A DNA stretch of 64,000 nt, taken from NCBI GenBank assembly GCA_003599855.1, contig QZKG01000047.1, positions 1,037 to 65,036 on the forward strand. The letters run 5' to 3'. The stretch comes from Gaiellales bacterium. GTDB taxonomy: Bacteria; Actinomycetota; Thermoleophilia; BMS3ABIN01. The first letter of the stretch is position 1; every line of letters starts with the position of its first letter. Shown here one piece after another: positions 10,625-50,704 of this stretch. A program made the position numbers and the translations under genes. The notes beneath the pieces are model-generated. The model had not been told where the DNA came from, searched no databases, and saw only the letters and a program-made list of their open reading frames with translations.

Positions 10625-10692
10625 TCACGGGACAGGGACTTTTTCGGCGGCGGCGGGACGTACCCCTGCACCGGCGCCGACCGAAGCGGCCG

Positions 10693-11427
10693 CTACCGGT
10701 AGACAGCGGCAGAATTCACGAAACCAGCTATCCCGGAGACGAACGCCTCCCGCTGCCTGCTGCCTCGCAGCACGCTGGAGATCTCGCCGCGGACCGGGCT
10801 GTCGGTGACCAGCAGCGCCAGCGTCGTCCTGACGCCCAGGAAGTTGCCCAGCGAGAACAGGGCCGATGCCTCCAGTTCGACGCCGAGGTATCCCTCCACG
10901 CCCCAGGCGGCGATGGCCTCATCGGTCTCCCGGAAGGCGGCCCCGGTGGTGACCACCGGGCCCTGGTGCACCGGCAGCTCCCGCCCGCGCATGAAGGATG
11001 CCAGGTTGTCCGTGAGCGCCGCGTCGCCCTGGACCTGCTCGCCGTGCGGGGCGCCGTAATGGGGCGAGAGGCACTCGCCCGCCAGGGAGGCCCCGGCGAC
11101 TATGATATCGCCGCACTCGATCTCCGGCTGCAGGGCGCCGCAGGAACCGATGCCGATGACCGTATCGATCCTGGTGTAGGCGAGGCTCCGCATCACGGCT
11201 TCGAGGATGACGGTTCCCGGCGGGACGCGCATGTAGCCTATCTTGACGCCGTCGATGTAGCCGGAATACAGCGAGCCGTGGTGCTCGTGGCGGTCAAGCC
11301 TGGAACTGATAAAGTCTTCCCCGAGGGCGAGCAGGAGGACGCGGGGCGTGAAATCGTGGGGGTCCGAGCCCTGGAAGACCCAGCGCTCGGCGACGAAGCG
11401 GACGAACTTTTGTTCCCAGGTTGTCAT
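10693..11427 (-). CDS. Nucleoside phosphorylase family (PNP/UDP) protein
   Basis: GIGSCGAL..GDII, VVTTGAAFRET, GVELEASAL, LVTD. Confidence 0.8.
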   Translation of the reverse strand: MTTWEQKFVRFVAERWVFQGSDPHDFTPRVLLLALGEDFISSRLDRHEHHGSLYSGYIDGVKIGYMRVPPGTVILEAVMRSLAYTRIDTVIGIGSCGALQPEIECGDIIVAGASLAGECLSPHYGAPHGEQVQGDAALTDNLASFMRGRELPVHQGPVVTTGAAFRETDEAIAAWGVEGYLGVELEASALFSLGNFLGVRTTLALLVTDSPVRGEISSVLRGSRQREAFVSGIAGFVNSAAVYR

Positions 11428-11513
11428 GCGGCTCTCGGCAGGCTCCCAAAGCTTCCATTCACACGGGATGACCGATACTATACCAGAAATGCCGTCCCCC
11501 CACCGAGACTAGG

Positions 11514-12983: not shown

Positions 12984-13946
12984 TCAGTTGCCCAGCACCA
13001 GGAACACGGTCGAGCCCCACTCCCGGGGCAGGAGCGGGTTGAGGGCCCGCGCCAGCGCCCCCGTGGCCAGGCTCGCCGCCTGGTAGAGGCGGGCGTGGCG
13101 CACGCAGGCGTTCCCGAAGGCAGCGAAGGCTTTCAGCGTCGGCGACGAGCGCGCATATTCGGGGCCGAGGCGCTTGGCATATTCCTCAGGCGGGAAGATG
13201 CCGGCGCGGAAGAACGTCCACGACCTCTCCACCGTGAAACCGGCGGCGCGGAAACGCGCCTCCGTCTGCGAAGGCAGCTCCAGGCCGTAGTGTCCGTCCA
13301 GCTCGATGAAGTAGCGCTGGAACAGCTCGGCGTCCCGGCGCACGAGCCGGTAGAAGGGGGCCGTGCAGTGGGCCTCGACGATGTGCAGCATGCTGCCGCC
13401 GGGCTTGAGCACCCGCTTCCACTCGGCCAGCACCGCCTCCTTGGCGTCGAAAGGGATATGGCCGAAGAAATCCCAGGAATGGATGACGTCGAAGGTGTCG
13501 TCGGCGAAGGGCAACGCCAGAGCGTCAGCTGCGGCCACCGCTTCGTATATCCCGCCGGCGCCCGCCAGCCCCTCCAGGGACAGGTCGATCCCCACGGTGC
13601 GGAAGGGGGCAAGCAGTTCGCTGCCGCCGCCGCAGCCTACATCCAGGACCAGGGTCGCGGCCGGGTCGAAGCGGTTGAGGAAGTCACGGGTGAACCGGTG
13701 CTTGACGGTGTTCGAGGCCAGGCGGTCCCTGAGCGCCTTGAGTGTCCGGGCCAGGCCCTGGCGGCGGGCGACGCCGTCCTCCACCGGGGCGGCGAAACGG
13801 CCCTCATAGAACTCGTCGTGGCCGCTGAAGCAGGGGATGCCCTCCCGGACCTCCCAGGAGCGGCCGCAGCCGCATCTGAGCGCCCCCTCCCCTGCCGCCA
13901 GCCTGCCGCGGCACGCAGGGCAGCGGAATATCTCCCGGGTTTCCAT
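12984..13946 (-). CDS. Class I SAM-dependent methyltransferase with N-terminal Trm112-like Zn finger
   Basis: CPAC..CGC..GIP N-terminus; VLDVGCGGG, LPFADDTFD, RVLKPGG. Confidence 0.85.
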   Translation of the reverse strand: METREIFRCPACRGRLAAGEGALRCGCGRSWEVREGIPCFSGHDEFYEGRFAAPVEDGVARRQGLARTLKALRDRLASNTVKHRFTRDFLNRFDPAATLVLDVGCGGGSELLAPFRTVGIDLSLEGLAGAGGIYEAVAAADALALPFADDTFDVIHSWDFFGHIPFDAKEAVLAEWKRVLKPGGSMLHIVEAHCTAPFYRLVRRDAELFQRYFIELDGHYGLELPSQTEARFRAAGFTVERSWTFFRAGIFPPEEYAKRLGPEYARSSPTLKAFAAFGNACVRHARLYQAASLATGALARALNPLLPREWGSTVFLVLGN

Positions 13947-13953
13947 GCGGAAG

Positions 13954-15081
13954 CTAACGCCCGCGGGAGCCTTTTTTCCTGCCGGCCCCTTCCATCTTCC
14001 CGGCGACGAAGGCGGCTATCTCCTGCTTGAAGCGCTCGCGGGAGAACTTCTCCGCATGCCTGCTGATCTTCCTCGCATCGAAGCTGCCCATGGAGAAGCG
14101 GGACACTGCTTCGATGAGGGACTCGGCGGTGGGCTCTTCGAAGAAGAGGCCGGTGCGCCCTTCAACCACGCTCTCGGTCAGGCCGCCGCGGCCGAAGCCG
14201 ATCACAGGCCGGCCCGCGGCCATGGCCTCCACCGGCACGATGCCGAAATCCTCCTCGCCGGGGAACACCAGCGCCAGGCAGCCGGCCAGCAGCTCCTGGA
14301 TCTGCTCGTCCCCGACATAGCCGAGGAACTCGATGTTCGGACCGGCGGCCTGGCGCAGCCGCTCCCGCTCCGGTCCGTCGCCGGCGACCTTGAGCGGCAG
14401 CCCCAGCCGGGTAAAGGCTTCCACCGCGAGCTCCACGCGCTTGTATGACACCAGCCGCGAGATGACCAGGAAGTATGTGCGCGGCGCATCCGCCGGGCTG
14501 AACCGGTCGACGTCCACCGGTGGGTGGATCACCGCCGCCTCGCGCCGGTAATACTTGGCGATCTTGGCGGCGACGTTGCTGGAATTGGCTATGAAATGAT
14601 CGACCCGGTCGGCCGCCTGGCGGTCCCAAAGCCGCAGGTAGTGCAGCACCAGGTCATTGCCCGCCTTCACCAGCGGCCGGGAGAAGCGGAAGCGCTGGTC
14701 GAGGTATGGCTCCCAGGCGTAGCGCAGGGGCGTATGGCAGTAGCAGACGTGCGTCGTGCCGGGGCCGGTGAGGATGCCCTTGGCACAGGCGGAGCTGGAG
14801 GAGATCACCAGGTCGTAGGAAGAGAAATCAAAGGACTCGAAGGCCAGCGGGAACAGCGGGATGTACCGCTGGGCGACCCTGTCCAGGTACGGCAGCTTCT
14901 GCACGAACGAGGTCCGCACGTCCCAGGACGCCACCGTCTCCGGCAGGTTCACGCTGGACATGAAGCTCGTGTAGACGGGGGCGCCGGGGTAGATGTCCAG
15001 GAGCGCTTCCACCACGCGCTCGGAACCGCCCAGCGTCGTCAGCCATTCGTGTGAGATCGCTACCCGCAGTTCCTTTTTCAC
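13954..15081 (-). CDS. GT4 glycosyltransferase
   Basis: HEWLTTLGGSERV, YCHTPLRYAW, EEDFGIVPVEAMAAG. Start set at GTG 15081 after GGTGAGG. Confidence 0.92.
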   Translation of the reverse strand: MKKELRVAISHEWLTTLGGSERVVEALLDIYPGAPVYTSFMSSVNLPETVASWDVRTSFVQKLPYLDRVAQRYIPLFPLAFESFDFSSYDLVISSSSACAKGILTGPGTTHVCYCHTPLRYAWEPYLDQRFRFSRPLVKAGNDLVLHYLRLWDRQAADRVDHFIANSSNVAAKIAKYYRREAAVIHPPVDVDRFSPADAPRTYFLVISRLVSYKRVELAVEAFTRLGLPLKVAGDGPERERLRQAAGPNIEFLGYVGDEQIQELLAGCLALVFPGEEDFGIVPVEAMAAGRPVIGFGRGGLTESVVEGRTGLFFEEPTAESLIEAVSRFSMGSFDARKISRHAEKFSRERFKQEIAAFVAGKMEGAGRKKGSRGR

Positions 15082-15193
15082 GTCCGCCTCACCCGGCACC
15101 TCCGGCGCAGCCTGCGTCGCTGCCGCAGCAGCGGCAGCCAATTGAGAATAACCGGCAAAAAGCATATACTTTTTTTAACCTATATTCAGCCAA

Positions 15194-16180
15194 ATGAAGC
15201 CCTCCACGGACCCCAAACAGGACATCTCCGGCGCCACTGCCACGGTCGCAGACGACCGCGGCCGGACAGTCGACGAAGCGATCATCCGGTCGCTCTGCTA
15301 CTCGGACATCTTCAGCTACCCCCTGCGGGTCGAGGAGATCGTCCGCTACGTCACCGGCGTCAAGATGACTATCGACGAGGCGGCCGAGAGGTTAAGGGCG
15401 AGCGAGCCGCTCATGGCGCTGGTGAGGACGGACGGCGAGTTCTATTTCCTCGAAGGGCGCGAAGCGAACTGCCAGCTGCGCAAGGACCGCGAGGCCGAGT
15501 CGCGCCAGCAGCTGGCCATCTCCCAGCGGCGCCTCGTCCCCCTGCAGGGCATCCCCTTCCTGAGGATGGCCGCCGTGACCGGCGCCCTGGCGGCGCTCAA
15601 CGCCCCCGCCGGCGACGACGTCGACCTGCTCATCGTCAGCTCGCGCAAGCGCACCTGGACGACCTACTTCTTCCTGCGCCTGTGGCGCCGCTTCGGCCAC
15701 AACCCGGACTTCTGCTTCAACGTCTTCCTCTCCGAGGGCGACCTGGTGTTCCGCAAGGAGAACTTCTTCTACGCCCGCGAGATCCTGGGAGCCCTGCCGA
15801 TCTACAACACCGGCTCGTTCGAGCGCTTCCTGGACGCCAATCCCTGGATCTACGACGTCTTCCCCTCTTACGACCGCGGCCGCGACCGGCAGATGTACCA
15901 CATCCCCAGGAGCCCGCGCTGGGTCAGGAGGCAGCGGCTGCTGGAGAAGCTGCTGGCGGGCATCCCCGGCGACCTCTTCGAGTTCACCATCCGCACCATC
16001 CAGACCCGGCGGCTCGACTCCTCATCCCCAGGCGCCGCGATGAGCATGCGCCGCAACCGCATCAAGCTGCACAAGCGCGACAACCGCTCGCCCATCATGG
16101 TCAAGTTCGATGAACGGGTGGAAGAATGGACCCGCCGCTACCGCGAGCTCGCCGTTCCGGCCATCAGGCCCGTGGAGTAA
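15194..16180 (+). CDS. Putative Pol-beta-like nucleotidyltransferase-domain protein
   Basis: N-terminal YSDIFSYPL..EE motif and AVTGALA..GDDVDLLIV (G-[GS/A]...DxD signature). Confidence 0.65.
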   Translation: MKPSTDPKQDISGATATVADDRGRTVDEAIIRSLCYSDIFSYPLRVEEIVRYVTGVKMTIDEAAERLRASEPLMALVRTDGEFYFLEGREANCQLRKDREAESRQQLAISQRRLVPLQGIPFLRMAAVTGALAALNAPAGDDVDLLIVSSRKRTWTTYFFLRLWRRFGHNPDFCFNVFLSEGDLVFRKENFFYAREILGALPIYNTGSFERFLDANPWIYDVFPSYDRGRDRQMYHIPRSPRWVRRQRLLEKLLAGIPGDLFEFTIRTIQTRRLDSSSPGAAMSMRRNRIKLHKRDNRSPIMVKFDERVEEWTRRYRELAVPAIRPVE

Positions 16181-16228
16181 GCGACCGGCTGTCCCGCAAC
16201 ATCGGGCCGCCGCCGCGACAGGGCGGGG

Positions 16229-17647
16229 TCAGGCGTTGCGGTCGAAGAAGGCGAACAGCGTCCTCAGCAGGATCTTGATGTCGAACCACGGGTTCCAGTT
16301 CTCGATGTAGTAGATGTCGTATTCCACGCGCTCACCGATGTCGGTGTCGCCCCTGAGCCCGTTTATCTGCGCCCAGCCGGTCAGCCCCGGCCGCACCCGG
16401 TGCCTGGCCGCATAGGAGGGAATGCTCTCCTTGAAGGACTCCACATGCGCCGGACGCTCCGGACGCGGCCCCACCAGGCTCATGTCACCCCTGATCACGT
16501 TCACCAGCTGGGGCAACTCGTCGATGCCCAGGGGCCGGATGATCCGGCCGACCCTGGTGCGGCGCACGTCCCTGGCCGTCGACCAGCCGGCCTCGCCCCT
16601 CTCCGCGTCCCGCCGCATGGAGCGGAACTTGAGCATCCTGAAGGGGCGCTCGTTCTTGCCGAGCCTGACCTGCTGGTAAAAGATCGGACCCGGTGAATCG
16701 ATCCGGATGGACACCATGGTCAACAGCATCACCGGCGCGGCCACAACCAGGGTGAAAAGTGAGATCGTGATGTCCATGGCCCGCTTGAACAACGCCTGCA
16801 GCCCCGTGATGGCGCCGCGCTTGAGGCCGATCACCGGCAGGCCGCGGATGTGCTCCACGCCCACGCGGTCGGAGAAGACCTCGTAAAGCCTGGGCACCAC
16901 GGTGAACTCGACGCCATAGGGCCGGCACCGCTCCATGAGGTTCACCGTCTGGTCGTGGCGGTCACGCGAAAAAGCCACGATCATGTGCTGGATCCTGTAC
17001 GTCTCCAGGACGGATTCGAGCTGGTCGTAATCATCGAACACGCGGTACTCGCCCTCGTGAACGACACGCCTGGAAGGTTTCTGGTCGAGGAAGCCGACGA
17101 ACTTAAGCCCAAGGCTGGTGTCGTTCTGGATCTTGCGCACGCACGAGAGGCCGACGCTGCCGGCCCCCAGCACCAGCGTCCGCTTCATGTACCAGCCGTG
17201 GCGGCGGCCCAGCTTCTGCAGGTGATAGACGATGAAACGCATGAGCGAGACGCAGACGATCATCAGCAGCCATGACAGTACGATCACGTTACGTGAATAG
17301 TGCACCGGGGGGAAGATGACGATGGTGGTGGAAAGCAGTACCATCGAACCGAGCGTCACCGCCGAGATGATATGTGGCAGGATCTCCAGCAGGCTGAGGT
17401 TGAGGCGGAACCGGTAGAGGCCGAAGAGCTTGAACAGCAGCCAGTAGAACGGGAGGATGACGAAAGCCACCGCCAGGTAGAACTCCGCCGACGGTGAGGG
17501 GCTGCCGGTCTCCTCGATCCAGAAACCAAGCTGGAAATAAGCCAGGAACGCCAGCCGGTAAGCCAGCACGACCCCCAGCAGGTCTCCGATTACGAGTGAT
17601 GCATGCGCGAAACGGTGGGATGTGAAAAATCTCTTGGCTTTTTTCAC
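16229..17647 (-). CDS. Polyprenyl-phosphate glycosylphosphotransferase (priming GT, WcaJ/WbaP family)
   Basis: 4 N-terminal TM; KRAMDI, KFRSM, DELPQLVNVIRGDMSLVGPRPERP, PGLTGWAQING, DIYYIENW. Confidence 0.95.
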   Translation of the reverse strand: MKKAKRFFTSHRFAHASLVIGDLLGVVLAYRLAFLAYFQLGFWIEETGSPSPSAEFYLAVAFVILPFYWLLFKLFGLYRFRLNLSLLEILPHIISAVTLGSMVLLSTTIVIFPPVHYSRNVIVLSWLLMIVCVSLMRFIVYHLQKLGRRHGWYMKRTLVLGAGSVGLSCVRKIQNDTSLGLKFVGFLDQKPSRRVVHEGEYRVFDDYDQLESVLETYRIQHMIVAFSRDRHDQTVNLMERCRPYGVEFTVVPRLYEVFSDRVGVEHIRGLPVIGLKRGAITGLQALFKRAMDITISLFTLVVAAPVMLLTMVSIRIDSPGPIFYQQVRLGKNERPFRMLKFRSMRRDAERGEAGWSTARDVRRTRVGRIIRPLGIDELPQLVNVIRGDMSLVGPRPERPAHVESFKESIPSYAARHRVRPGLTGWAQINGLRGDTDIGERVEYDIYYIENWNPWFDIKILLRTLFAFFDRNA

Positions 17648-31583: not shown

Positions 31584-34046
31584 CTACATAGAGGCCCCAG
31601 GCAGTTCGTCGAAGGAGTTGTAGTAGGTCGTCCTCTGGCTAACGACCAGCGGCTGTCCTTCGACGCTGCTCTTGACCTGGACCGGGCCGTTCATCTGGCC
31701 CGGGAAAGTCGGCGTTACCCGCCCGCCGGCCGGGACGTTATAGCGCCCCACCAGCTGGTTGCCGATCTTTATATCTACCACGGCTTCCTCCTGGCTCTGG
31801 TTGCCCACCAGAATCCAGGTCTTCATGCCGGTGGAGGCGTTGTCGTACCACGCGAACCACTGGTCGCAGTTGAGCTCGGCCGGCGTGACCCCGGGGACTT
31901 CCTCGAAGGAGCCGCGGAATACCGAGCGCTCGCTCACCATGAGCGGCTGTCCATTGCTGGACACGACCCGCACCGGGCCGTTCATCAGATTCGGGAAGTT
32001 GGGCGTGACCCTGCCGCCGGCCGGGACGTTATAGAAGCCTGCCAGCTGCCCGCCGATATAGACGCCTACCTGGGCGGTCTGGGTACCCTGATTGCCGATA
32101 ACGACCCAGGTCTTCATGCCGGCGCTCTGCTGGTCGTACCATGTGAAGTGATACTCGGTCCCGAGCTCTGCCGCCGTACGGCTCCTGACCTCATTGAAGG
32201 TGCCGTTATAGGTGACCCGCTCGCTGACCGTGAGCGGCTGGCCATTGCTGCTGACCACGCGCACCGGACCGTCCATCACGCCATGGTATTGAGGCGCGAC
32301 GCTGCCGCCGGCAGGCACCGAGTAGTGCCCGACGTTGCGACCGGCGATGAACACATCGACCTCAGCGGTGCGGCTGCCCTGATTGCCCACCATCAGCCAG
32401 GTGTTCATGCCCTGGCTCACCTGGTCATACCAGGACAGGTAATGTTCCGTACCGAGATCGGCCTGGGGTGTGGCCGGCAGTTCCGAGAACGAACCGTTCA
32501 TGGTCACCCTTTCACTCACCAGCAGCTCGCGTCCCGCAAGAGAGACCACCTTCACCGGGCCTTTGGCGACACCGGCATACCTGGGGGTCACCCGCTCGTG
32601 AGCGGCTACATGATAGCTTCCCATGAACGACCCGCCGATATAGACTTCCACGTCCTGCCCCGTTTCGGTCGGATTGCCGATCACGAGCCAGGTCCTCATG
32701 CCCGGGGATGCGTTGTCATACCAGCCGAAGAAATAGTTCTTCTCGTGGCTGTTATCCACGGTCACTTCCACAGATCGGGTGCTCGTGTTGCCGGTAGCGT
32801 CGTAGGCCTTTGCGGTCACAGAGTAAGAACCATCAGCCAGAGAGCGGGTATAGATATGCGAGCCATAGGGCGCCGAAGTCTTTGTATCGATCAGCCTGTC
32901 GCCGACGTACAGCTCCACCTTGCTGATGCCGCTGCCATCAGAAGCCGAGATCTCGACGGCAACCGTGCCAGAAAGAGTCGCACCCGGTGACGGTGAATCG
33001 ACAGATACCACCGGCGGCTCCGAGTCCGGCAGGCTCACAGCCTGCCGGAATGCATCCAGGCTCTGCTGGGAACTGTTGATACGCCAGTCCGTTTCCTTGT
33101 TGATGTGGAACCAGGTCACCATCTCCATCTTCGGGAATCTGGAGGGGATGATGCTGAAAGCGTCGGTTATCCAGCGGGCCTTGCCGCCGTTCTGGGCATT
33201 GCCTCCGATCTCAGTGGAGGCCGTCTCGCTGACTACGATCGGCTTGCCGGTACGCTGTACCGCTACGTCGTAGCTGTACTTGAAGACTTCTTCGAAGCTC
33301 TGCCACGACGAGGTCCAGGTTGGCGTGTTGTACATGGTCCCCCAGTTGTACCCGTTGATACCTACGTAGTCCACGTAGCTGTCGCCCGGGTAGTAGGTAT
33401 CGAAGATGCTGTTGGCATCGGCGTAGGAACCGGCGCGGTTAGGCGACCAGATGAACTTGACATTGTCGGCGCCTTCCTGCCGGAAGATGTCGTGGATATG
33501 CCGCCACGCCGGTATATAGTCGGCTGGCGAGTTGCCGTTGGCGGTGCCGCCCCAGGCGACCCAGTCACCGTTCATCTCACACATGGGCCGGAAATAGATC
33601 GTATAGCCGAAATCCCTCAATTCACGCGCCCAGCGGCGGATCTGAGTGTCGTGGTTGCCTGCGGTAATAGTATTAAGCCGGTATTCAGGCTGGTTGTTGG
33701 GATCCTTGGCGAAGTTATGCGGTTCCCAGGAAAGCTGGATGATGCGCCCCTCTTCAGCATACGGCCTGAATGTGTCGGCATAGAATGATTCACTGATCGA
33801 TTCGTACCAGAGAAACACGTCGATCTGACGGCCGACCGTGGACTCGAACTGGTGGATATCATCGATCGTCGGCAACTGCTCGTCGGGAAACTCCGGGTCG
33901 GGGAAGAACACGCCGACCTTGAGTTGTGACGGCTCGACTGCGACGGCGTTTCCCGCGGGGATCGTAACGAAGATCGTCAGAGATATGAGCGCCGCAGCAA
34001 TCAAGACAACGGCGGAGATGCTGGCTGTGATGCGAGCCCTTGACAT
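31584..34046 (-). CDS. Secreted GH26 glycoside hydrolase with Ig-like (Big) domain and four C-terminal ~96-aa repeats
   Basis: Signal peptide; SWEP, FRPMCEMNGDW, WSPN, YYPGDSYVDYVGINGYN, KPIVVSET; PPVVSVDSPSPG..DG.Y..TAKAYD..GN. Confidence 0.88.
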   Translation of the reverse strand: MSRARITASISAVVLIAAALISLTIFVTIPAGNAVAVEPSQLKVGVFFPDPEFPDEQLPTIDDIHQFESTVGRQIDVFLWYESISESFYADTFRPYAEEGRIIQLSWEPHNFAKDPNNQPEYRLNTITAGNHDTQIRRWARELRDFGYTIYFRPMCEMNGDWVAWGGTANGNSPADYIPAWRHIHDIFRQEGADNVKFIWSPNRAGSYADANSIFDTYYPGDSYVDYVGINGYNWGTMYNTPTWTSSWQSFEEVFKYSYDVAVQRTGKPIVVSETASTEIGGNAQNGGKARWITDAFSIIPSRFPKMEMVTWFHINKETDWRINSSQQSLDAFRQAVSLPDSEPPVVSVDSPSPGATLSGTVAVEISASDGSGISKVELYVGDRLIDTKTSAPYGSHIYTRSLADGSYSVTAKAYDATGNTSTRSVEVTVDNSHEKNYFFGWYDNASPGMRTWLVIGNPTETGQDVEVYIGGSFMGSYHVAAHERVTPRYAGVAKGPVKVVSLAGRELLVSERVTMNGSFSELPATPQADLGTEHYLSWYDQVSQGMNTWLMVGNQGSRTAEVDVFIAGRNVGHYSVPAGGSVAPQYHGVMDGPVRVVSSNGQPLTVSERVTYNGTFNEVRSRTAAELGTEYHFTWYDQQSAGMKTWVVIGNQGTQTAQVGVYIGGQLAGFYNVPAGGRVTPNFPNLMNGPVRVVSSNGQPLMVSERSVFRGSFEEVPGVTPAELNCDQWFAWYDNASTGMKTWILVGNQSQEEAVVDIKIGNQLVGRYNVPAGGRVTPTFPGQMNGPVQVKSSVEGQPLVVSQRTTYYNSFDELPGASM
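31590..32745 (-). repeat. Four tandem protein repeats (Y.F.WYD..S.GM.TW..IGNQ..V.V.IGG...G.Y.VPAGGRVTP....GPV.V.S.NGQPL.VSER....SF.E.P)
   Basis: Directly visible in the translation of 31584-34046. Confidence 0.9.
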
Positions 34047-34070
34047 GCCCAGAAGTCAAGCCTCCTCGGC

Positions 34071-34151
34071 GGCGGCCAGGCTGTCCTAGTCAAAAGACCT
34101 TAGACCCTTGGCTTTGCGCCACCCTGTTTCCAGAGTTTTGCCCTTGTCACC
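34071..34151 (-). ncRNA. Cyclic di-GMP-I (GEMM-I) riboswitch upstream of the GH26 gene
   Basis: Minus strand GGTGACAAGGGCAAAACTCTG-GAAA-CAGGGTGGCGCAAAGCCAAGGGTCTAAGGTCTTTTGACTAGGACAGCCTGGCCGCC: GGCAAA, GNRA loop, GCAAAGCC, TCTAA receptor. Confidence 0.92.
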
Positions 34152-43727: not shown

Positions 43728-43803
43728 TGGCGACAAAGGCAAACCCGTCGCGAGGCGGGGACGCAAAGCCAGGGGTCTCCGGGGGGAGATAGCCCAGCTG
43801 CCG
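43728..43803 (+). ncRNA. Cyclic di-GMP-I (GEMM-I) riboswitch
   Basis: TGGCGACAAAGGCAAACCCGTC-GCGA-GGCGGGGACGCAAAGCCAGGGGTCTCC..GGAGATAGCCCAGCTGCCG. Confidence 0.92.
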
Positions 43804-43875
43804 AAGCTTTTGAACGTAAGGTTTGAGGTTTTGGATAGACTGGGCTCTTTTCATGGGCTCCGGGCCAGTATTTAC

Positions 43876-43916
43876 GCTCAATTGCTTTCGGCAAAGCCGA
43901 AGCAGTTGAGCTTTTT
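43876..43916 (+). terminator. Leader terminator (riboswitch expression platform)
   Basis: GCTCAATTGCTTTCGGC-AAA-GCCGAAGCAGTTGAGC-TTTTT between aptamer and ORF. Confidence 0.85.
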
Positions 43917-43986: not shown

Positions 43987-44535
43987 TTGAAGGTGAAGAG
44001 AATTGCAAAGGCAGTGGCGATTATAAGCGGGACGCTGATCATCACACTTCTACTGGCAACAGCGGTCTACGGTTCATCTGACTCCGAGCCAGTGACTGTC
44101 ACCGTGGCGGTGACCGACTACATCGGGGTAGATCCTGTGACCAACGTGGCCCTTGCCGACATCAGCGGCCTCGGCGGGTCCAGCGAAGGCAGCACGGATG
44201 TCTACGTTTCCACCAACAACGATCTGGGATACAAGCTTGAGATCACTGCTGCCGGCAGCCCGGCCATGGCCAAGGGTGGCGACTCCTTCGCCGACTATGC
44301 CGGTCCTGGCGCCTGGAGCATCGCTGCCACAGACTCTGCATTCGGCTTCAGCGTGGACAACAACACCAGCTATCAGGGTCTGAACGGGGGCACACCGATC
44401 CAGATCAAGACCAATGGCAATGAAGTAGTCAACGAGCTAACGACCCTGTTCTTCAAGGCCGAGGTAGGGGCCAGCAAGCTGCAGGCCAGCGGGACATACC
44501 AGGCTGATCTGACCGTTACGGCGACAACGCTGTAG
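43987..44535 (+). CDS. Secreted beta-rich protein, candidate major pilin (WxL-like or chaperone-usher pilin-like)
   Basis: Signal peptide (..TAVYG), N-terminal VTVTVAVT strand, VSTNN..GY.L, C-terminal GTYQADLTVTATTL. Confidence 0.65.
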   Translation: MKVKRIAKAVAIISGTLIITLLLATAVYGSSDSEPVTVTVAVTDYIGVDPVTNVALADISGLGGSSEGSTDVYVSTNNDLGYKLEITAAGSPAMAKGGDSFADYAGPGAWSIAATDSAFGFSVDNNTSYQGLNGGTPIQIKTNGNEVVNELTTLFFKAEVGASKLQASGTYQADLTVTATTL

Positions 44536-44560
44536 CTTTCGGAAAACCAAATCTACCAAG

Positions 44561-44605
44561 AGACAAAGGCCCCTCCAACCCAGGGGCCTTTGTCTTTGTT
44601 TGTTT
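44561..44605 (+). terminator. Intrinsic terminator after the candidate pilin gene
   Basis: AGACAAAGGCCCCT-loop-AGGGGCCTTTGTCT followed by TTGTTTGTTT. Confidence 0.85.
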
Positions 44606-44696
44606 GCCTGTGGCGGCGGGCAGGAAATACTAATGGTTGACTAGAACATGATATGCTGACTGCATTATCTGTCGGCGACCAAGAGTATCCCGCATA

Positions 44697-46094
44697 ATGA
44701 TCCTGCCCAGCCCCGACATAATACGTCCCGACGCGAACCGCTGGCGGCGCCGGTCGGTCGCGGCCCTGGCCATCATGTTCAGCATGGCGTTGGCGCTTTT
44801 CGCCCTGTCGCTGCTGACAGGCTACGCACGACCCTATTCCCTGGAAAAACGTGACGAGCCCGTCACCGGGCAGCTCACGATCTCTCCGACAAAGACAGAG
44901 GTCATCCTGGAACCCGGGCAGTCCGCTTCCAGGGAAGTCACCCTGGTCAACCGCACCGGTGAGGATGTGGACGTCACATTCTCGATAGTGGATTTTGAGG
45001 GGTCGCTCGACCCGGCTGATTCCCATGTCCTTGTTGAAGACGGGGACAGTGCCTGGGGCGCCAGCAACTGGCTTGAGCCTGAACTGGACAACATCGTACT
45101 GGAACACGGGGAGACGCTGAAGCTGGACGTCCGGATCATTGTCCCGCCGGGCGCGGAGCCGGGCGGCCACTACGCCGCGCTGCTGGCGGAGTCAAAACAG
45201 GAAGGCGGCGAGGGAGGCGTCCAGATCAGCTACCGGATAACCTCACTGTTCCTGATCACCGTCCCCGGCGACATCGACTCGCGGGCCACGCTCAACGATC
45301 CCGAAACACCGCTTATCGCCAGCTTCGGGCCTGTTAACATCGGCCTGGTCTTCAACAATCTGGGCAACATCCACCAGAGCCCTTCGGGCGTTGTCAGGGT
45401 CACCAACGTACTGGGGCAGGAGGTCGCCCAACTGCCTGTAAAGGAATGGGTGGTCCTGCCGGAGTCATCACGCAGGACACAGGTGGAATGGCCCGGCAAA
45501 TGGCACCTCGGACCGTACAAGGTCGATGCCCAGATTTCCTACGGTGAAGACGGTGAGGTCCTTTACGCTTCCAGGACTATCTGGTTCATCCCCTGGGAGG
45601 TCATCCTGGCAGGGCTGGCGGCTTCGTTCGTCATCCTGTTCATCATCGCCCGCATAACCCGCCGCAGAAGGAGGATGAAACAGGAGATTATGGACGAGCT
45701 CGAGGAGCTGCGGTCGCTCAAAGAGCCGGGAGTCGATGAGGTGCAGGCAGATGATTATGAGGAGGAGCATGCCGAGCTGACAGAGAGTGCTGGGCAAGAT
45801 GCTGCTGCCGATGAAGAAGCCGGTAAACACCCTTCGATCTCCGGGGACCTGGTGCCCCTGAACCAGCTGCTTCCTTCAACCGACGACATCAACCTCGTGG
45901 ATATCTCCGATCCTGAGACAAGGCATCTTATCCGGGAGCTGATCAACAACGAGATGGACCTGGCGCGCATGTACATCATCGAGGGCAAGAACGAAGAAGC
46001 CCGCCGGGAGCTGATGGAGGCCAGGTCAGCGGCCATGCGCATCAAGCTGTTCACCGAGGTCGCCGTGATCGACGACCTGCTGAACTACCTCTAG
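44697..46094 (+). CDS. DUF916/PapD-like two-Ig-domain membrane protein with acidic cytoplasmic tail and FimV-C-like terminus
   Basis: LTISPTKTEVILEPG..VTLVN, VPPGAEPGGHYAAL, NNLGNIH..P.G, TM (FIPWEVIL..) plus RRRRR, DLARMYIIEGKNEEARRELMEA. Confidence 0.65.
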   Translation: MILPSPDIIRPDANRWRRRSVAALAIMFSMALALFALSLLTGYARPYSLEKRDEPVTGQLTISPTKTEVILEPGQSASREVTLVNRTGEDVDVTFSIVDFEGSLDPADSHVLVEDGDSAWGASNWLEPELDNIVLEHGETLKLDVRIIVPPGAEPGGHYAALLAESKQEGGEGGVQISYRITSLFLITVPGDIDSRATLNDPETPLIASFGPVNIGLVFNNLGNIHQSPSGVVRVTNVLGQEVAQLPVKEWVVLPESSRRTQVEWPGKWHLGPYKVDAQISYGEDGEVLYASRTIWFIPWEVILAGLAASFVILFIIARITRRRRRMKQEIMDELEELRSLKEPGVDEVQADDYEEEHAELTESAGQDAAADEEAGKHPSISGDLVPLNQLLPSTDDINLVDISDPETRHLIRELINNEMDLARMYIIEGKNEEARRELMEARSAAMRIKLFTEVAVIDDLLNYL

Positions 46095-46157
46095 CAGGCC
46101 CACGCCATATTTACGGGGTTCTGCCTTCGTGCTACCATTGCTCTACTCACTGGATGG

Positions 46158-46409
46158 GTGGAGGCAATGTCTAAAAGGTTGTTCACAAGTATCCTCATCA
46201 TGCTCGCAGCGCTGCTGTCGATGCCTGCTGCGCTGGCTGACGCTTCTGGGCAGGTGGTCCCCCACAGCGCGGCGCAGGTCTCGGTGACGGTGGAAGTAAC
46301 GTCCTCTCTCTCGGTATCCACGGATGGCGAAGCACAGTCGGGGCAGCCCATTGCCCTCTGGATAAGCGACGGCGGACGCACCGTCACCTATTCAGTCATC
46401 GACGGCTGA
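46158..46409 (+). CDS. Small secreted protein with pilin-like N-terminal strand
   Basis: Signal peptide ending AALA; AQVSVTVEVTSSLSV resembles the mature N-terminus of 43987-44535. Confidence 0.6.
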   Translation: MEAMSKRLFTSILIMLAALLSMPAALADASGQVVPHSAAQVSVTVEVTSSLSVSTDGEAQSGQPIALWISDGGRTVTYSVIDG

Positions 46410-46480
46410 TGCAGGAAGTCATCCCTGGGAACTGGCCCGCCACTGGCTCCCCACCCTCTTGAGGGGACGGTGGCGAGCGG

Positions 46481-49400
46481 CTACTCGGTGTAGGCCGTGT
46501 AAGCTATTGAAGTGGCGTAATTGCCAGACACAACCGAGGCCGGCACGACGAACTCGTAATCGTACATCAACGACGTCAGCGGGGTGGGAGGCTGGCTGCT
46601 GAGGATGACCGTCTCCGACGGCGCCTTTACGAAGGGCGTATAAACCCCTCCCCCGTCGATCTTCCATCTGAGGTTACCGATGCCGATGATGTTGGCCGGG
46701 CTGATGGTGTGCACCAGGTCATCGGTGGCTGACACTTTGATACCCCAGTTGATATTGGACGAGACGGAAAGCTTGACGGCGTACTGGGGAGAAGCCGTGT
46801 CGCCGACATAATACGTCATCCCCGGGTCGAGGCTGCCGAAGTTCACTGAGCCGCTGCCGGCGGTGCCGTCGCGATTGAAGGTCTCATCAACGGTCAGGGT
46901 GATCGATCCCGGCGGCGGGATATACTCGACGACGAGTTTGGGATAAAGTGTCGGGTCGCTCCACTCGGATGAATAGAACAGGCTGCAGTCGAACGAAGCC
47001 GCATTCTCAACGCTCTTCTTGATGATGACGCCGTTGTTGGGGATGGCGCCATCGATCCAGCCCTGGGCCAGGCTTCTGACATCCCAATCTATCCAGGCGC
47101 CCGCAACCGGCGGCGCGACTACGCTGGCGCTGGCCGTGGCGTCATAATCACCACCGGAGGTTGTCCAGAGGCTTGCGCCATCTTTCGTATCCCATGTCGC
47201 GCCGTCACCCGAAGCCGTCAGCTCGCCGGTGCCCTCGGTCCAGCCTCCGGTCAGGTAATGCAGGTCCAGGGTCCTTGGCACCCCGCCGATCTGGCTGTAC
47301 TGGTAAAAGGAGATCGTGGCGCTGTTGACAGTCGACCCGGCCGGGATGGCAGAGAGGTCAAACTGGGCCATGGGCCGGAACGACTGCCAGAAAGGTCCCA
47401 GGTCGCCAGCCACGTGGATGGTCCACGAGCCGTTGTTGTAGGTCGGCTGGCCCCTGACTATCGTAGCATCCTTGCCATCAGCCGGGCCCGGCTGGATGAT
47501 TACCTGCACCGCCGTCTGGAAAGTGTGGTCTCCCGAGATGGTCTCGTTGCCGGCGGGATCGACGGAACGGACGCGATAATGGTAAAGGGTGTTCTCGGTC
47601 AGGCCAGTCAGCGGAACGGCGTGCTGGTTCACCAGCGAGCTGTCGAGGGGCGTCGTGGATCCGTAGCTGGTAGTGGTGCCGTACTCCACCTGGGTGGTGG
47701 CCGCCTCGTCCGTGGACCAACTGATCCCGGCTGTCGTCGTCCTGACGTTCTCGGAGCGGACGTCGCCGATGGCCGGGCCTGTGACATCATCTCCCAGCCA
47801 TTCGATGACGAGCTTCGGCCTGAGCGAGGGGTCAGCCGCGTAATTCGAGGAGTAGAAGCCCTTGGCGTCAGTGACCGCCGGGTTCTCGACAGCCTGCCTG
47901 ATGAGAAGGCCGTTATTGCTGACACTCCCGTTTACCCACGCCTGGGTCAGGGCCGTCAGGTCCCAGTCGACCCAGATGTTAGTGGCGTTCGGCGCCAGCG
48001 TCGAGGCGCTTGACCCGGCATTGTAATCGCCGCCCGGAAGCGACCAGGGGGCAGCGCCGTCAGAAGAAGTCCAGGTGGCGCCGTCGGCTGTTGCAGAACC
48101 GGCCCCGGTCCCTTCCGCCCAGGATCGGGCAAGATAGTGGGCATCGATCATCTGCGGGCTCGCGTCACCCTGATACCATTGGTAGAGCGACATTGTGGCG
48201 CTGCTGATGGTTGAACCCGCCGGAATGGTGGAGAAATCGAACTGGAGCAGGCCACGGATGGTCCCCCAGTCCCCTGCGTTTATGTCGCCGGCTCCCAGGT
48301 TGACGTCGGCCCCCATATTCCAGTCAGTCCGATTGCTGCGCAGAAAGGTGTCTTTTCCGAGCCCCGGTGATAGCTGCAGGATGGTGAGGTTGGCGGTCTT
48401 GAAACTCTGCTCGGCAGAATAGGTCACGTAGCCGGCAGCGTCGGCTGAGCGCACCCGGTAATAATAAGTAGTGCCCTGCTGCAGACCGGTAAGCGCCTGG
48501 TTATGGCTCACGACCCTGGTCGGATCGAGCGTGGTTGAACCGATGTACACGCCAGGGCTGGTGCCGTACTCCACCTGGGAATCGGCCGGCTCGCTGGTCG
48601 TCCAGCTGATATTGGCCCCGCTGCTCGTGATTCCGCCTGCCGCTACAGACGATATGGCCGGGGGATTGTTGTCGACGTTGACCTGGACCGAGGCGGTGCT
48701 GACGTTATACGCGCGGTCAGCAACGGTCAGGCGCAGGGTATAGAGGCCGTCTGCGACACTGGTGGTCCCCCAGGAACCCAGCGTGCCGGCTGTGACCGGG
48801 CTGTAGGCAGTCGCACCTATCTGGGACCACGTGGCTGGCGCTGCTCCAGCGCCGTACTCCAGTCTATAATTATAAAAACTGAACGCGTCAGAGGCGGTGC
48901 CGGCAATCGTCAGATTGCCTGAGACGTAAGCTGTTGGGGCAGGCGACGTGATCGCTGCTACAGGAGATGACCCATCGATCTGGATCATGCGGGACATCCG
49001 CTCGATGTTTCCACCGCCGCTGGGTGCCCGGAGCCTGGTGCCTACCCAGTACCAGTCCCCATCTGTAAGCCCCCCTGAAGGCAGCGTCAATGAGAAGCTG
49101 TAAAGGTTGCCGGTTTGTGTCACCGCGGGGGCGCTCCATGTATAGACATTCCCTCCCGTAAAGTTGTAGATGCGGTTGGCGTTGCCTGTCCTGCTGGCGC
49201 TGTAGGGCCGGCCGTCACCGTAAGCTGTAACGTAAATGTCGCTCCCGGGCCGGAATGTGGTGGACAGGTCTGTCCTGGCTGCATCGGCGTAGAAAGCGAA
49301 GGGCTGGTTCAAGCCGCTGATCTCGATGAATTCCTCAAAACTCACTGACTGGTTGTATGTGATGACGCCGTCGAGCTTGGTGGCGCTCGCAGCGGCAGTT

Positions 49401-49807
49401 ATTGCAGCAGTGTAAACATATGGAGGACCACCTGGCTGCTTCGTCCATGATACTGTCCCGCCGAGCTGCGACTCGTCGAAATCCATCTGGCGCAACTGGC
49501 TGCCGGAGCCATTATTGGTCACGCGGTTCGTCGTCACACGGACATAAATGGTCTGGCCGGGGTTGAAGCTCGTTGTCGGGACCGTACAGGCGGCATCCGA
49601 GCAGACCTCGATGATATCGCCATTGGACTCGGTGTAGTAACCGGCGGGGCTGACGACGGCGCGGGACAGGCCCGCTGAGAAAAGAAGCACCACGACCAAC
49701 AGCAACAGCATTCCGGCTGCGATATAGGTCAGCCGATTCCCCATCAAGGTAAGCGTTTGTGAGCGACTCCGATTGAGGAGGCCCATGCCATCCCTTCTTC
49801 CGGACAC
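46481..49807 (-). CDS. Large secreted adhesin-like protein: Ig-like, 2x fibronectin type III, 2x DNRLRE-like, C-terminal pilin/WxL-like domain
   Basis: ISWTTSEPADSQVEYG..L.GL...T.YYYRVRS.D twice; FD.S.IPAGST..SAT..Y..NNG..SS..PKLV.E twice; ends GNYATSIAYTAYTE. Confidence 0.8.
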   Translation of the reverse strand: MSGRRDGMGLLNRSRSQTLTLMGNRLTYIAAGMLLLLVVVLLFSAGLSRAVVSPAGYYTESNGDIIEVCSDAACTVPTTSFNPGQTIYVRVTTNRVTNNGSGSQLRQMDFDESQLGGTVSWTKQPGGPPYVYTAAITAAASATKLDGVITYNQSVSFEEFIEISGLNQPFAFYADAARTDLSTTFRPGSDIYVTAYGDGRPYSASRTGNANRIYNFTGGNVYTWSAPAVTQTGNLYSFSLTLPSGGLTDGDWYWVGTRLRAPSGGGNIERMSRMIQIDGSSPVAAITSPAPTAYVSGNLTIAGTASDAFSFYNYRLEYGAGAAPATWSQIGATAYSPVTAGTLGSWGTTSVADGLYTLRLTVADRAYNVSTASVQVNVDNNPPAISSVAAGGITSSGANISWTTSEPADSQVEYGTSPGVYIGSTTLDPTRVVSHNQALTGLQQGTTYYYRVRSADAAGYVTYSAEQSFKTANLTILQLSPGLGKDTFLRSNRTDWNMGADVNLGAGDINAGDWGTIRGLLQFDFSTIPAGSTISSATMSLYQWYQGDASPQMIDAHYLARSWAEGTGAGSATADGATWTSSDGAAPWSLPGGDYNAGSSASTLAPNATNIWVDWDLTALTQAWVNGSVSNNGLLIRQAVENPAVTDAKGFYSSNYAADPSLRPKLVIEWLGDDVTGPAIGDVRSENVRTTTAGISWSTDEAATTQVEYGTTTSYGSTTPLDSSLVNQHAVPLTGLTENTLYHYRVRSVDPAGNETISGDHTFQTAVQVIIQPGPADGKDATIVRGQPTYNNGSWTIHVAGDLGPFWQSFRPMAQFDLSAIPAGSTVNSATISFYQYSQIGGVPRTLDLHYLTGGWTEGTGELTASGDGATWDTKDGASLWTTSGGDYDATASASVVAPPVAGAWIDWDVRSLAQGWIDGAIPNNGVIIKKSVENAASFDCSLFYSSEWSDPTLYPKLVVEYIPPPGSITLTVDETFNRDGTAGSGSVNFGSLDPGMTYYVGDTASPQYAVKLSVSSNINWGIKVSATDDLVHTISPANIIGIGNLRWKIDGGGVYTPFVKAPSETVILSSQPPTPLTSLMYDYEFVVPASVVSGNYATSIAYTAYTE

Positions 49808-49843
49808 GCGAAATCCTTTGCCCTAAAAGGTTTTCAGATAATC

Positions 49844-50704
49844 CTATTGTCGCCATTTGCCCGGAAAAACATTAGCAATAGCAGGCTTTTTCTTTATCAG
49901 TATGGCTGCAGCCGCTACCAGCAGGAACAGCGCAGGGACAAGCTTCCACGAAAAGATCAGAATATAGGAAGTCTTCGTCACTGGAGCACCGACCCCTGAA
50001 CTGAGACTGAGCTTGAGCCGGCGGATGCCGAAAAGTGGCGGATCCTGCCAGACTGCCTGCAATTCAAAGGATTCGTCATTGCTGACCTGCCTGCTGGAAC
50101 TGACCAGCTCAACATCTTCACCAAGCAGGCTTTCAAGCACTATCCTGCCATCCATCGCTACGGGGAATTCACTGGTATTGCGACCCCTCATGGTAAAAGT
50201 GACTGGCCCCGAGCCAATGATCAGCGGATATGAGAAGTCAGCTTCACTGACCGGCCTGATGACGTTCATCTCCACGGCGACCCGTATCTTGCCGATGATG
50301 GCGACATTCCCGGCGGAAGCATCCGCGACATTGAAGAAGATGTACGCCTCTCCCCTGCCAACGCCGGCATCGGACGGCACTGCCACATGCACTTCGACCT
50401 CTGCTGACTCCCCGGCAGCAAGCCTGATCCTGGCGGGGGCAACAGAGACCGCGGCGAGGGGCCCCTCTCCCTGGCCCTGCTCGACCACAGCTTCGACCTC
50501 TACCTCTCCAGCCGAAAGGTTGCGCAGGCTAACCTTCTCCCGGGTCTCGTCACCGGCTGCGATGGTCGCAGGGATGTGGGTCGGGGTGACGTTGATGCCG
50601 GTCTGGGCCGCCGCAGCATAAGCCCATGACAGCGCCAGGACTACTGCCGCCAGCGCTCCCCCCAAGGCAAAGGTTTTTTTTGGATAAGCTGACATCGATT
50701 GCAC
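49844..50704 (-). CDS. Second DUF916/PapD-like two-Ig-domain protein with C-terminal TM anchor
   Basis: Signal peptide; GINVTPTHI..AGDE..VSLRN, LAAGESAEVEV..VP, W..PP.FG, TM followed by KKK. Confidence 0.65.
   Translation of the reverse strand: MQSMSAYPKKTFALGGALAAVVLALSWAYAAAAQTGINVTPTHIPATIAAGDETREKVSLRNLSAGEVEVEAVVEQGQGEGPLAAVSVAPARIRLAAGESAEVEVHVAVPSDAGVGRGEAYIFFNVADASAGNVAIIGKIRVAVEMNVIRPVSEADFSYPLIIGSGPVTFTMRGRNTSEFPVAMDGRIVLESLLGEDVELVSSSRQVSNDESFELQAVWQDPPLFGIRRLKLSLSSGVGAPVTKTSYILIFSWKLVPALFLLVAAAAILIKKKPAIANVFPGKWRQ

Follow-up and report, generated by a model that had tools for sequence, protein, structure and literature searches.

The stretch of DNA considered here (the window) comprises 64,000 nucleotides (nt) of contig QZKG01000047.1, positions 1,037 to 65,036, from the Gaiellales bacterium assembly GCA_003599855.1 (G000 below; other G codes denote sampled genomes, and L codes denote loci). 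It carries five genes, lettered (a) to (e): a pilin candidate, (a); two anchored proteins with two immunoglobulin-like (Ig-like) domains each, (b) and (e); a mini-protein, (c); and a large FN3/DNRLRE protein, (d). All five open reading frames (ORFs) listed in a first-pass annotation of the letters are present (Table 1). They form a real, conserved, riboswitch-controlled and usher-less chaperone–pilin locus, an actinobacterial form of a kind of system described in 2026. It is probable that this locus encodes a pilus assembled without an usher, through chaperone-guided donor-strand exchange, in a monoderm, Thermoleophilia-like actinobacterium.

Table 1. Features of the locus and two further riboswitch copies; positions are those of the window unless a contig is named
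Feature	Position	Strand	Description or basis
Riboswitch aptamer, c-di-GMP-I-GGC class	43729..43806	+	RF03167, 70.5 bits (gathering score 59), E 2e-16, full model 1-80
Leader hairpin and U-run	43877..43916	+	ViennaRNA, -25.1 kcal/mol for a 56-nt segment; stem bulged
Gene (a)	43987..44535	+	ORF, 182 amino acids (aa)
(a) signal peptide	residues about 1-29	+	sequence reading
(a) N-terminal alternating strand VTVTVAVT	residues 36-43, nt 44092-44115	+	
(a) Ig-like pilin core	residues 45-182	+	AlphaFold2 (AF2) model
(a) C-terminal strand GTYQADLTVTAT	residues 169-180	+	
(a) last strand GTYQADLTVTATTL	nt 44491-44532	+	sequence reading
Terminator of (a)	44559..44597	+	intrinsic; 16-base-pair (bp) stem and T-run
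Gene (b)	44697..46094	+	ORF, 465 aa
(b) beta-sandwich domains	residues 47-189, 197-297	+	AF2 model
(b) hairpin donor strand VQISYRIT	residues 175-182, nt 45219-45242	+	complex model
(b) transmembrane helix	residues about 300-321, nt 45594-45659	+	AF2 helix 300-339 and hydrophobic stretch; then RRRRR
(b) cytoplasmic tail	residues 322-465, nt 45660-46091	+	144 residues, acidic then helical
Gene (c)	46158..46409	+	ORF, 83 aa; secreted mini-protein with donor-strand-like VSVTVEVT, without acceptor domain
Gene (d)	46481..49807	-	ORF, 1108 aa; secreted; Ig-like domains, two FN3 and DNRLRE modules; start uncertain (GTG, Met8 or Met22)
(d) C-terminal pilin/WxL-like domain	residues about 960-1108, nt 46484-46930	-	profile; ends GNYATSIAYTAYTE
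Gene (e)	49844..50704	-	ORF, 286 aa; signal peptide, two Ig-like domains, transmembrane helix about 255-270, short basic tail
Second riboswitch copy	34067-34151 (G000:C7:35103-35187)	-	59.5 bits
Fifth riboswitch copy	C16:13976-14054	n/a	73.1 bits; precedes a 100-aa mini-protein

The host genome (2.35 Mb, 77 contigs, 90.7% complete) provides a consistent setting for such a system. The absence of an usher, as first claimed, extends to the whole genome: PF00577 has no match at E <= 0.01, with a positive Escherichia coli control. Omp85/BamA was likewise searched for in the genome and not found. The claim that no sortase is present holds at the locus but not genome-wide, as two sortase genes lie on other contigs; an LPXTG-type sorting signal is lacking, as described, in all five locus proteins. 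The two sortases, together with the missing Omp85/BamA and usher, fit a monoderm envelope without a chaperone–usher pathway.

Anchored proteins related to WxLIP

The description of (b) as a membrane-anchored two-Ig protein is borne out by its AF2 model (residues 1-340; predicted local distance difference test, pLDDT, 91.7), in which two beta-sandwich domains lie between N- and C-terminal helices. A C-terminal transmembrane helix follows the second domain, as in the chaperones of the Elr system discussed below. The (b) ectodomain yielded 67 homologues, and a 36-row alignment (A2) was assembled from (b), (e), these homologues and neighbors from other genomes. The A2 profile matches the solved E. 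faecium WxLIP (EfmWxLIP1; 9i25_C, 9i1y_A) at E 1.2e-7 over profile positions 44-264, covering both domains. PF06030 (WxLIP_PGBD) matches 15 of the 36 A2 members at E <= 0.1, with a best E of 5.1e-10, and the same two WxLIP chains are the top Foldseek and VIA matches of the (b) structure. Judged by sequence homology, (b) and (e) are homologues of WxLIP that resemble PapD-type chaperones, which supports their identification as chaperones. The first-pass annotation had held that Ig proteins unrelated to PapD or DUF916 would speak against its idea; the relationship found is one to WxLIP, and none of the contrary outcomes it named that lay within reach of this analysis was observed.

The second anchored protein, (e), is a weak paralogue of (b) (BLASTP E 0.008, 23% identity over 171 aa). 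The A2 profile, in which (e) is itself a row, matches it at G000:C7:50910-51731 with E 5e-75, and one of its relatives is named 'COG1470 family protein [Thermoleophilia bacterium]'. It is a candidate chaperone for (d), or a candidate membrane anchor. The 144-residue tail of (b), missed in the first-pass annotation as was the riboswitch in the pilin leader, ends in ...VIDDLLNYL and has a weak FimV C-terminal match (TIGR03504, E 0.087). Similar endings occur in the (b) homologues of G060, G117 and G075; no such tail is present in (e) or in the shorter chaperones elsewhere.

A pilin-type fold in an unannotated family

The N-terminal alternating strand, the C-terminal strand and the dedicated terminator ascribed to (a) are all present. 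Within the strand, V38 and V42 are invariant in a further alignment (A4). A different terminator, with a 14-bp stem, occupies the same place after the pilin gene of G060; one was looked for after the pilin gene of locus L012 and none was found. An exhaustive HMMER search collected 210 representatives of the (a) family at E <= 0.001 and 22 at E <= 1e-10. Most are 170-260 aa long, and some reach 400-1548 aa with the domain at the C-terminus.

The AF2 model of (a), made with an alignment of 42 family members (A1), has a pLDDT of 93.8. Its top Foldseek matches are nearly all donor-strand pilins (CS20, CfaB, FimG, CupE, CsuA/B), with CanA, TasA and TLP-1 ranked lower; the solved WxL chain (9i25) is absent among the 50 entries listed for (a), a result that still allows for similarity. 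In the ESM Atlas, (a) adjoins large clusters whose members are hypothetical proteins of Minisyncoccota and Saccharimonadota (template modelling score by query, 0.92-0.94), as well as DUF285/LRR proteins of 470-840 aa that bear its fold; an Actinomycetota cluster with Pfam WxL in 14% of its members scores 0.92 to (a). At the level of sequence, the 42 A1 members match no relevant Pfam family at E <= 0.01, TasA/camelysin included, the single dUTPase match being spurious, and the A1 profile finds no relative among PDB sequences, where the only matches are chance ones to the proteasome. A kinship of pilin-type domains with SecY, Spiralin or dUTPase was also considered and dropped, the Pfam matches concerned being chance ones. 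As modelled, then, (a) has a donor-strand-type pilin fold and belongs to an unannotated family. It is a candidate for the major pilin.

A predicted donor-strand complex

Prediction of (a) together with its adjacent Ig protein, a check that the first-pass annotation had proposed, was carried out with the (b) ectodomain (residues 41-299) and mature (a) (residues 29-182), each with its alignment. The pair reached an interface score (ipSAE) of 0.84 (runs of 0.86, 0.84 and 0.83), compared with 0.18 for the best of three controls; for calibration, 58 of 80 solved complexes and 2 of 110 mismatched pairs attained that ipSAE mark. The runs have at least 95% of contacts in common, and the partner has a pLDDT of 91 or more. 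The lowest-error contacts join (b) residues 176, 178, 179, 181 and 182 to (a) residues 173-180 in the same direction, and further contacts join (b) 175-176 to (a) 53-54. From this pattern, the second hairpin strand of (b), 175-VQISYRIT-182, is predicted to slot in beside the last core strand of (a), to which it runs parallel, with the first core strand on its other side, and (a) residues 30-42, where the alternating strand lies, fall outside the modelled interface. In the monomer model, the hairpin loop (b residues 171-180) is the least confident part of the ectodomain, with a pLDDT of 72. The predicted arrangement is one of donor-strand complementation, and the complex model supports that geometry for the pair. 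The same geometry is given for ElrE–ElrD and for chaperone–usher systems in the accessible part of the Elr preprint (bioRxiv 10.64898/2026.10.17.759780), and the accessible part of earlier work forecast it for WxLIP–WxL.

A stable complex would fit this model equally well. It is possible to imagine (b) and (e) holding (a) and (d) by strand complementation as a static, non-polymerising surface display with (a) associated with the wall, in keeping with the older 'platform' view of WxL/Csc clusters. Such a display was proposed for WxLIP–WxL in the accessible part of a 2023 Protein Science paper; the locus also has no LPXTG anchor. However, several observations make static display unlikely. The alternating strand of (a) is conserved and outside the modelled chaperone interface, the fold neighbors of (a) are polymerising pilins, and a pilin-specific terminator and a riboswitch suit a high-copy fibre subunit. 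Further, the available text of the Elr preprint has ElrD polymerise, revising the static model (bioRxiv 10.64898/2026.10.17.759780), and that of a second preprint has related systems of the candidate phyla radiation (CPR) type making filaments (PMC13278184).

Conservation of the gene pair

The prevalence of these genes was assessed in a sample of the window's phylum (401 genomes, 249 genera). The A1 profile matches 9 of the 401 genomes at E <= 1e-4, G000 counted. A neighborhood survey, also proposed at the outset, found a pilin-like ORF directly followed by an anchored chaperone-like ORF at seven of the eight loci fetched, the eighth being a 1.8-kb contig end. The chaperone-like ORFs are about 320-355 aa long (457 aa in G060) and have a signal peptide, and most also have a transmembrane helix at the C-terminus plus an Arg-rich tail. 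In G060, from the same family as the host, all five genes are syntenic and lie beside Lgt, with the (e) homologue adjoining (d). In G334, the order is pilin, chaperone and a 1211-aa protein, the C-terminus of which matches (d) 957-1104 (32% identity, E 5.5e-9). In G335 and G187 (L013, L014), the pilin domain makes up the C-terminal half of a longer protein (378 and 356 aa).

The pair extends beyond this phylum. A contig of Candidatus Magasanikiibacteriota, located from a single CPR protein, carries a pilin, an A2-type chaperone (E 3.5e-71) and a second pilin-like gene. Two other genes of this locus (L036) may be noted: that at 10459-11649 (+) encodes 396 aa with a signal peptide, C-terminal transmembrane helix and basic tail, and could be an anchor, and that at 12119-16501 (+) encodes a 1460-aa protein that could be an adhesin. 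In the phylum of this genome, A1 matches 62 of 351 sampled genomes, often in multiple copies and in frames of up to 3681 aa.

The chaperone is the more widespread component: the A2 profile matches 105 of the 401 genomes and 84 of the 249 genera at E <= 1e-8, a count that takes in five unpublished genomes and G000 (two matches). When further chaperone loci were inspected, 17 of 20 had a nearby ORF matched by A1, by a profile of eight Actinomycetota WxL-type proteins (A3) or by a (d)-type profile, and one of the three without a profile match has an evident, unscored candidate, the other two being the G117 and G075 loci taken up below. Three small secreted proteins, which A1 and the (d)-type profile each match, bridge the window's two types. 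The chaperone is thus the conserved marker of these loci, and the pilins diverge past profile reach.

That (a) might instead self-assemble extracellularly into a chaperone-independent matrix fibre, as TasA/TLP or cannulae do, with (b) and (e) as unrelated COG1470-like neighbors, is hard to credit in light of this distribution: the pair of pilin and anchored-chaperone genes is kept across two phyla. The chaperone is moreover homologous to WxLIP, the complex reaches 0.84 where the best control reaches 0.18, and the TasA/camelysin family has no match to (a) or to the A1 members at E <= 0.01.

Riboswitch control

The predicted aptamer (Table 1) scores above the Rfam gathering score and lies 180 nt upstream of the (a) start. 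The c-di-GMP-I-GGC class reportedly came out of comparative work on riboswitch variants in 2017, and its ligand is not known to be settled. The aptamer is nearly invariant in the leader of G060, with diverged flanks, and the leader hairpin is conserved there with compensatory changes. A simple terminator scan missed this hairpin because of its bulge; it is probably the expression platform of the riboswitch, an intrinsic terminator. The octamer GCCGAAGC occurs both at the 3' end of the aptamer (43800-43807) and in the 3' arm of the hairpin, a repetition that suggests mutually exclusive pairings and, going by the letters, suggests that ligand would favor termination. Of 11 sources scanned, four (the window, G060, G067 and G164; L011, L015, L016) have an RF03167 match above threshold upstream of their pilin gene. 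MicroRNA matches from the Rfam scan were dropped.

The host genome has five copies of this riboswitch class. Downstream of the second, which is also in the window, the gene at 31584-34046 (-) encodes a secreted protein of 820 aa in which GH26 and Big_7 domains are accompanied by four repeats at the C-terminus. The third, on contig 6, precedes two tandem type IV pilin genes with N_methyl and ComP_DUS domains (L066 507-935 (-), 1022-1426 (-)), such that the two pilus types appear to share a cyclic-dinucleotide regulon. The fourth is upstream of a 480-aa secreted protein. The fifth precedes a mini-protein on contig 16 (L063 1724-2026 (+)) that is secreted, 100 aa long and without an acceptor domain; once mature, its N-terminus reads SEFTVTVTVQDAIAVD and resembles the (a) donor strand (51.5% probability, 33 columns). 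This mini-protein could be a regulated cap or terminator of the fibre.

The large protein, the mini-protein and WxL

The FN3/DNRLRE assignment of (d) is upheld by two DNRLRE stretches (NF033679, 3.8e-50) and FN3-type domains in Pfam and NCBIfam; CBM96 and disaggregatase-repeat models match as well. Such domains would also suit a 'Csc' carbohydrate complex, in which (d) is a glycan-binding or glycan-degrading unit scaffolded by the small proteins, without any fibre, and it is of a piece with this that a riboswitch of the same class in the window precedes the secreted GH26 enzyme. We nonetheless regard a carbohydrate complex as very unlikely. It leaves the pilin fold and donor-strand geometry of (a) unexplained, the pilin–chaperone pair is conserved in loci without any DNRLRE protein, and the same domains are explained if a pilus ends in a glycan-binding adhesin. 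Under the preferred reading of a donor-strand pilus, (d) is a candidate adhesin. For the mini-protein (c), a candidate terminator or cap subunit, G060 has a 90-aa homologue in the corresponding place (46% identity over 50 aa, E 5.7e-6).

The C-terminal domain of (d) is related by profile to WxL-type proteins. Its profile aligns with A3 at 81% probability (E 1.2e-5) over 92 columns, including the first WxL motif, and an ESM Atlas look-up of the domain gave, as a lead only, a feature match of 0.89 to a cluster that is 20% WxL. The first-pass annotation had described the WxL tryptophan as absent. This is true of (a), where G-Y-K-L and L-T-V-T stand in place of the dual Trp-x-Leu motif, but not of (d), which retains it in part, with N-W-G-I at the first motif. 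Pfam WxL matches 11 of the 401 phylum genomes at E <= 0.001, four of them above the cut-off, two of these four being unpublished and left out of use. Among published WxL-hit loci, an A2-type neighbor is present in 6 of 11 short loci examined (E 1e-26 to 8e-44), which indicates that a single chaperone family is the partner of (a)-type pilins as well as of WxL proteins that Pfam recognises. The A1 hidden Markov model found nothing significant among the ORFs of WxL-hit loci, the best E being 0.055. As a side observation, the 1.8-Mb genome G392 (L012, L021, L032) has five A2-type chaperone matches; its (a)-type pilin (E 8.4e-53) and its Pfam-recognisable WxL proteins each have a chaperone beside them.

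Flanking genes

On one side, the locus is flanked by rpoD and genes for a TPR protein, a thioredoxin-like protein, CcdA and Lgt; on the other lie UvrA and then an ORF resembling UvrB by eye. The relatives nearest to (a), (b), (d) and (e) are proteins named for Thermoleophilia or for Actinomycetota metagenome-assembled genomes. The G+C content is about 0.65-0.69 in the first 28 kb of the window and about 0.57-0.60 over 32-46 kb, which includes the start of the locus.

Discussion

The proposal of an usher-less pilus with tethered PapD/DUF916-like chaperones, bridging WxL clusters and chaperone–usher pili, is upheld here in each test of it that was run, namely chaperone homology, pilin fold and complex geometry; the sequence kinship claimed among (a), (c) and (d) does not reach significance in pairwise comparison. 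A number of results weigh against assembly by donor-strand exchange. The statement that (d) ends in a domain related to (a) does not survive pairwise comparison, which stays at chance level (z 0.47; 147 of 500 shuffles reach the score); profiles lend it modest support, with 56% probability over 54 columns when a six-sequence profile of the (d) C-terminus is aligned to A1 by hhalign, and 0.6% when the (d) C-terminus is entered as a single sequence. Similarly, the N-terminal strand that (c) was said to share with (a) is recovered by hhalign of A1 and (c) (76% over 24 columns) but not by pairwise scoring (z 0.12, with 204 of 500 shuffles reaching the score). BLASTP of (a) against (d) and of (a) against (c) returned nothing. 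The further claim that (d) lacks a free N-terminal strand is literally correct, but an alternating stretch, SITLTVDETF, stands directly before its last domain; (d) therefore need not be a tip-only subunit.

The profile link to WxL is modest. A1 aligns with A3 at 66% probability over just 29 C-terminal columns, and Pfam WxL (PF13731) matches neither (a) nor (d), even at E <= 10; at the same threshold it has no match anywhere in the host genome or on nine pilin-type domains from this and related loci. On the chaperone side, nothing reaches Pfam thresholds on (b) or (e), and a whole-genome search with PF06030 matched neither. Two genomes from the host's family, G117 and G075, keep a (b)-like gene without any pilin match, from which it follows that pilin assembly may not be the only role of (b); these genes (L043 4435-6078 (+), 547 aa; L044 3967-5457 (-), 496 aa) occur without a second chaperone. 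Finally, the modelling covers the chaperone–pilin pair and no polymer, and the complex score may partly echo memory of solved chaperone–usher and WxLIP complexes. As like complexes have already been solved, the score of the (a)–(b) pair is a measure of likeness, not proof of binding.

The underlying idea is no longer new, because two 2026 preprints give the mechanism in Bacillota and in CPR bacteria. As described in its accessible part, the first, dated 17 October 2026, shows by cryo-electron microscopy and biochemistry that the WxL protein ElrD of Enterococcus faecalis polymerises by donor-strand exchange, with nucleation by the anchored DUF916/DUF3324 chaperone ElrE; ElrD and ElrC are the pilins, ElrA the proposed tip and ElrB the proposed LPxTG terminator (bioRxiv 10.64898/2026.10.17.759780). 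The present locus resembles Elr in having anchored two-domain chaperones of the same family, a hairpin strand modelled parallel to the last pilin strand with the pilin N-terminal strand free, a small pilin and a large protein with a C-terminal pilin-like domain, a small protein with only a donor-like strand, and no usher. It differs in its phylum, Actinomycetota and not Bacillota; in having no LPxTG subunit, which is optional in the preprint's definition; in its two chaperone paralogues, one with the long cytoplasmic tail; and in the riboswitch control of its pilin gene. In addition, (a) is smaller, is closest to Csu pilins and by eye lacks the [S/T]-x-[G/A]-x-[V/I]-x-F donor consensus. None of the three Pfam detection models reaches threshold here (PF06030 and PF11797, the latter WxLIP_HBD, on the chaperone, and PF13731 on a pilin within 10 kb of it). 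The Elr screen used three Pfam models at gathering thresholds, and the accessible text describes the system as confined to Bacillota save for a "small Actinomycetota satellite" of chaperones (bioRxiv 10.64898/2026.10.17.759780); loci like the present one would thus have been missed. Apart from that remark, no earlier report in Actinomycetota was found, supplementary files lying outside the scope of the search.

The second preprint (version 2, June 2026) describes the Pam pili of Candidatus Mycosynbacter amalyticus, a CPR bacterium, with PamA/B/E pilins, a PamT tip, anchored PapD-like chaperones PamC/D and a PamR anchor; in its accessible part, donor-strand pili are termed exclusive to CPR and neither WxL nor DUF916 is mentioned (PMC13278184). 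Neither preprint, in the portions available, mentions the other's system. Compared by published description and not by Pam sequences, the present locus is alike in that a gene for a C-terminally anchored PapD-like chaperone lies beside one for a pilin with a truncated Ig-like acceptor domain, in a cell without an outer membrane. The (a) family is also commonest in Patescibacteria (62 of 351 genomes, and the atlas neighbors) and includes pilin domains C-terminal to another domain (L013, L014). Unlike Pam pilins, (a) does not have two domains (an N-terminal sandwich, a linker donor strand and a C-terminal acceptor), and no RbmA-like PamR was recognised here. No Pam entries appear in the fold searches of (a).

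More distant systems differ in instructive ways. Csu pili of Acinetobacter baumannii (CsuA/B, CsuC and the CsuD usher) have an usher and an outer membrane, both lacking here, and a periplasmic chaperone where the present one is membrane-anchored; no sequence-level kinship was detected, and no soluble periplasmic chaperone of the PapD family is recognisable by sequence at the locus. The WxL/Csc clusters of Lactobacillales, interpreted in the accessible parts of two papers as static peptidoglycan-bound complexes (PMC10599100, PMC9772566), likewise pair a small protein and a large protein that share a C-terminal domain with an anchored DUF916-type protein; unlike in those clusters, Trp-x-Leu is here replaced in (a) and partial in (d). 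Fibres of TasA/TLP-1, archaeal cannulae and bundling pili have no anchored chaperone that completes the fold of each subunit, in contrast to the WxLIP-family chaperone gene conserved beside the pilin gene here.

A possible assembly pathway can be outlined on this basis, in which subunits would polymerise, each served by one chaperone. All five proteins would be exported by Sec. Membrane-held (b) would insert its hairpin strand, residues 175-182, into (a) and so complete the Ig-like fold, as the complex model predicts. By analogy with ElrD and Pam pili, the VTVTVAVT strand of an incoming (a) could then displace the chaperone strand, joining subunits head to tail. The large protein (d) would serve as adhesin, presumably at the tip, with its pilin/WxL-like acceptor domain handled by (e), and (c) and the contig-16 mini-protein, offering only a donor-like strand, may cap or terminate the fibre. 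As the locus has no LPXTG subunit, the fibre would probably stay tethered through the anchored chaperone. Transcription of the pilin gene would be controlled by the c-di-GMP-I-GGC riboswitch with its terminator platform, and the strong post-pilin terminator would give a high ratio of pilin to chaperone.

The locus adds a third phylum to a pilus type that was presented in 2026 as lineage-restricted, to Bacillota in one case and to CPR in the other. A chaperone homologous to that of Bacillota, in combination with a pilin family that is commonest in CPR, points to a single and much wider pathway. It is tempting to go further, if tentatively, and to suggest that Elr/WxL, Pam and the actinobacterial system could be branches of one ancient monoderm pathway, built on a WxLIP-family chaperone and fast-diverging pilins, carried by roughly one in four Actinomycetota genomes and missed by Pfam screens, and here wired to riboswitches, including for an on-demand capping mini-protein; this broader view is slightly less likely than not. 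The riboswitch offers an entry point to regulation that can be tested directly, and through it this pilus joins type IV pili and secreted glycosidases in one putative cyclic-dinucleotide regulon. The fibre, if built, would most likely be thin, adhesive and borne on the cell surface.

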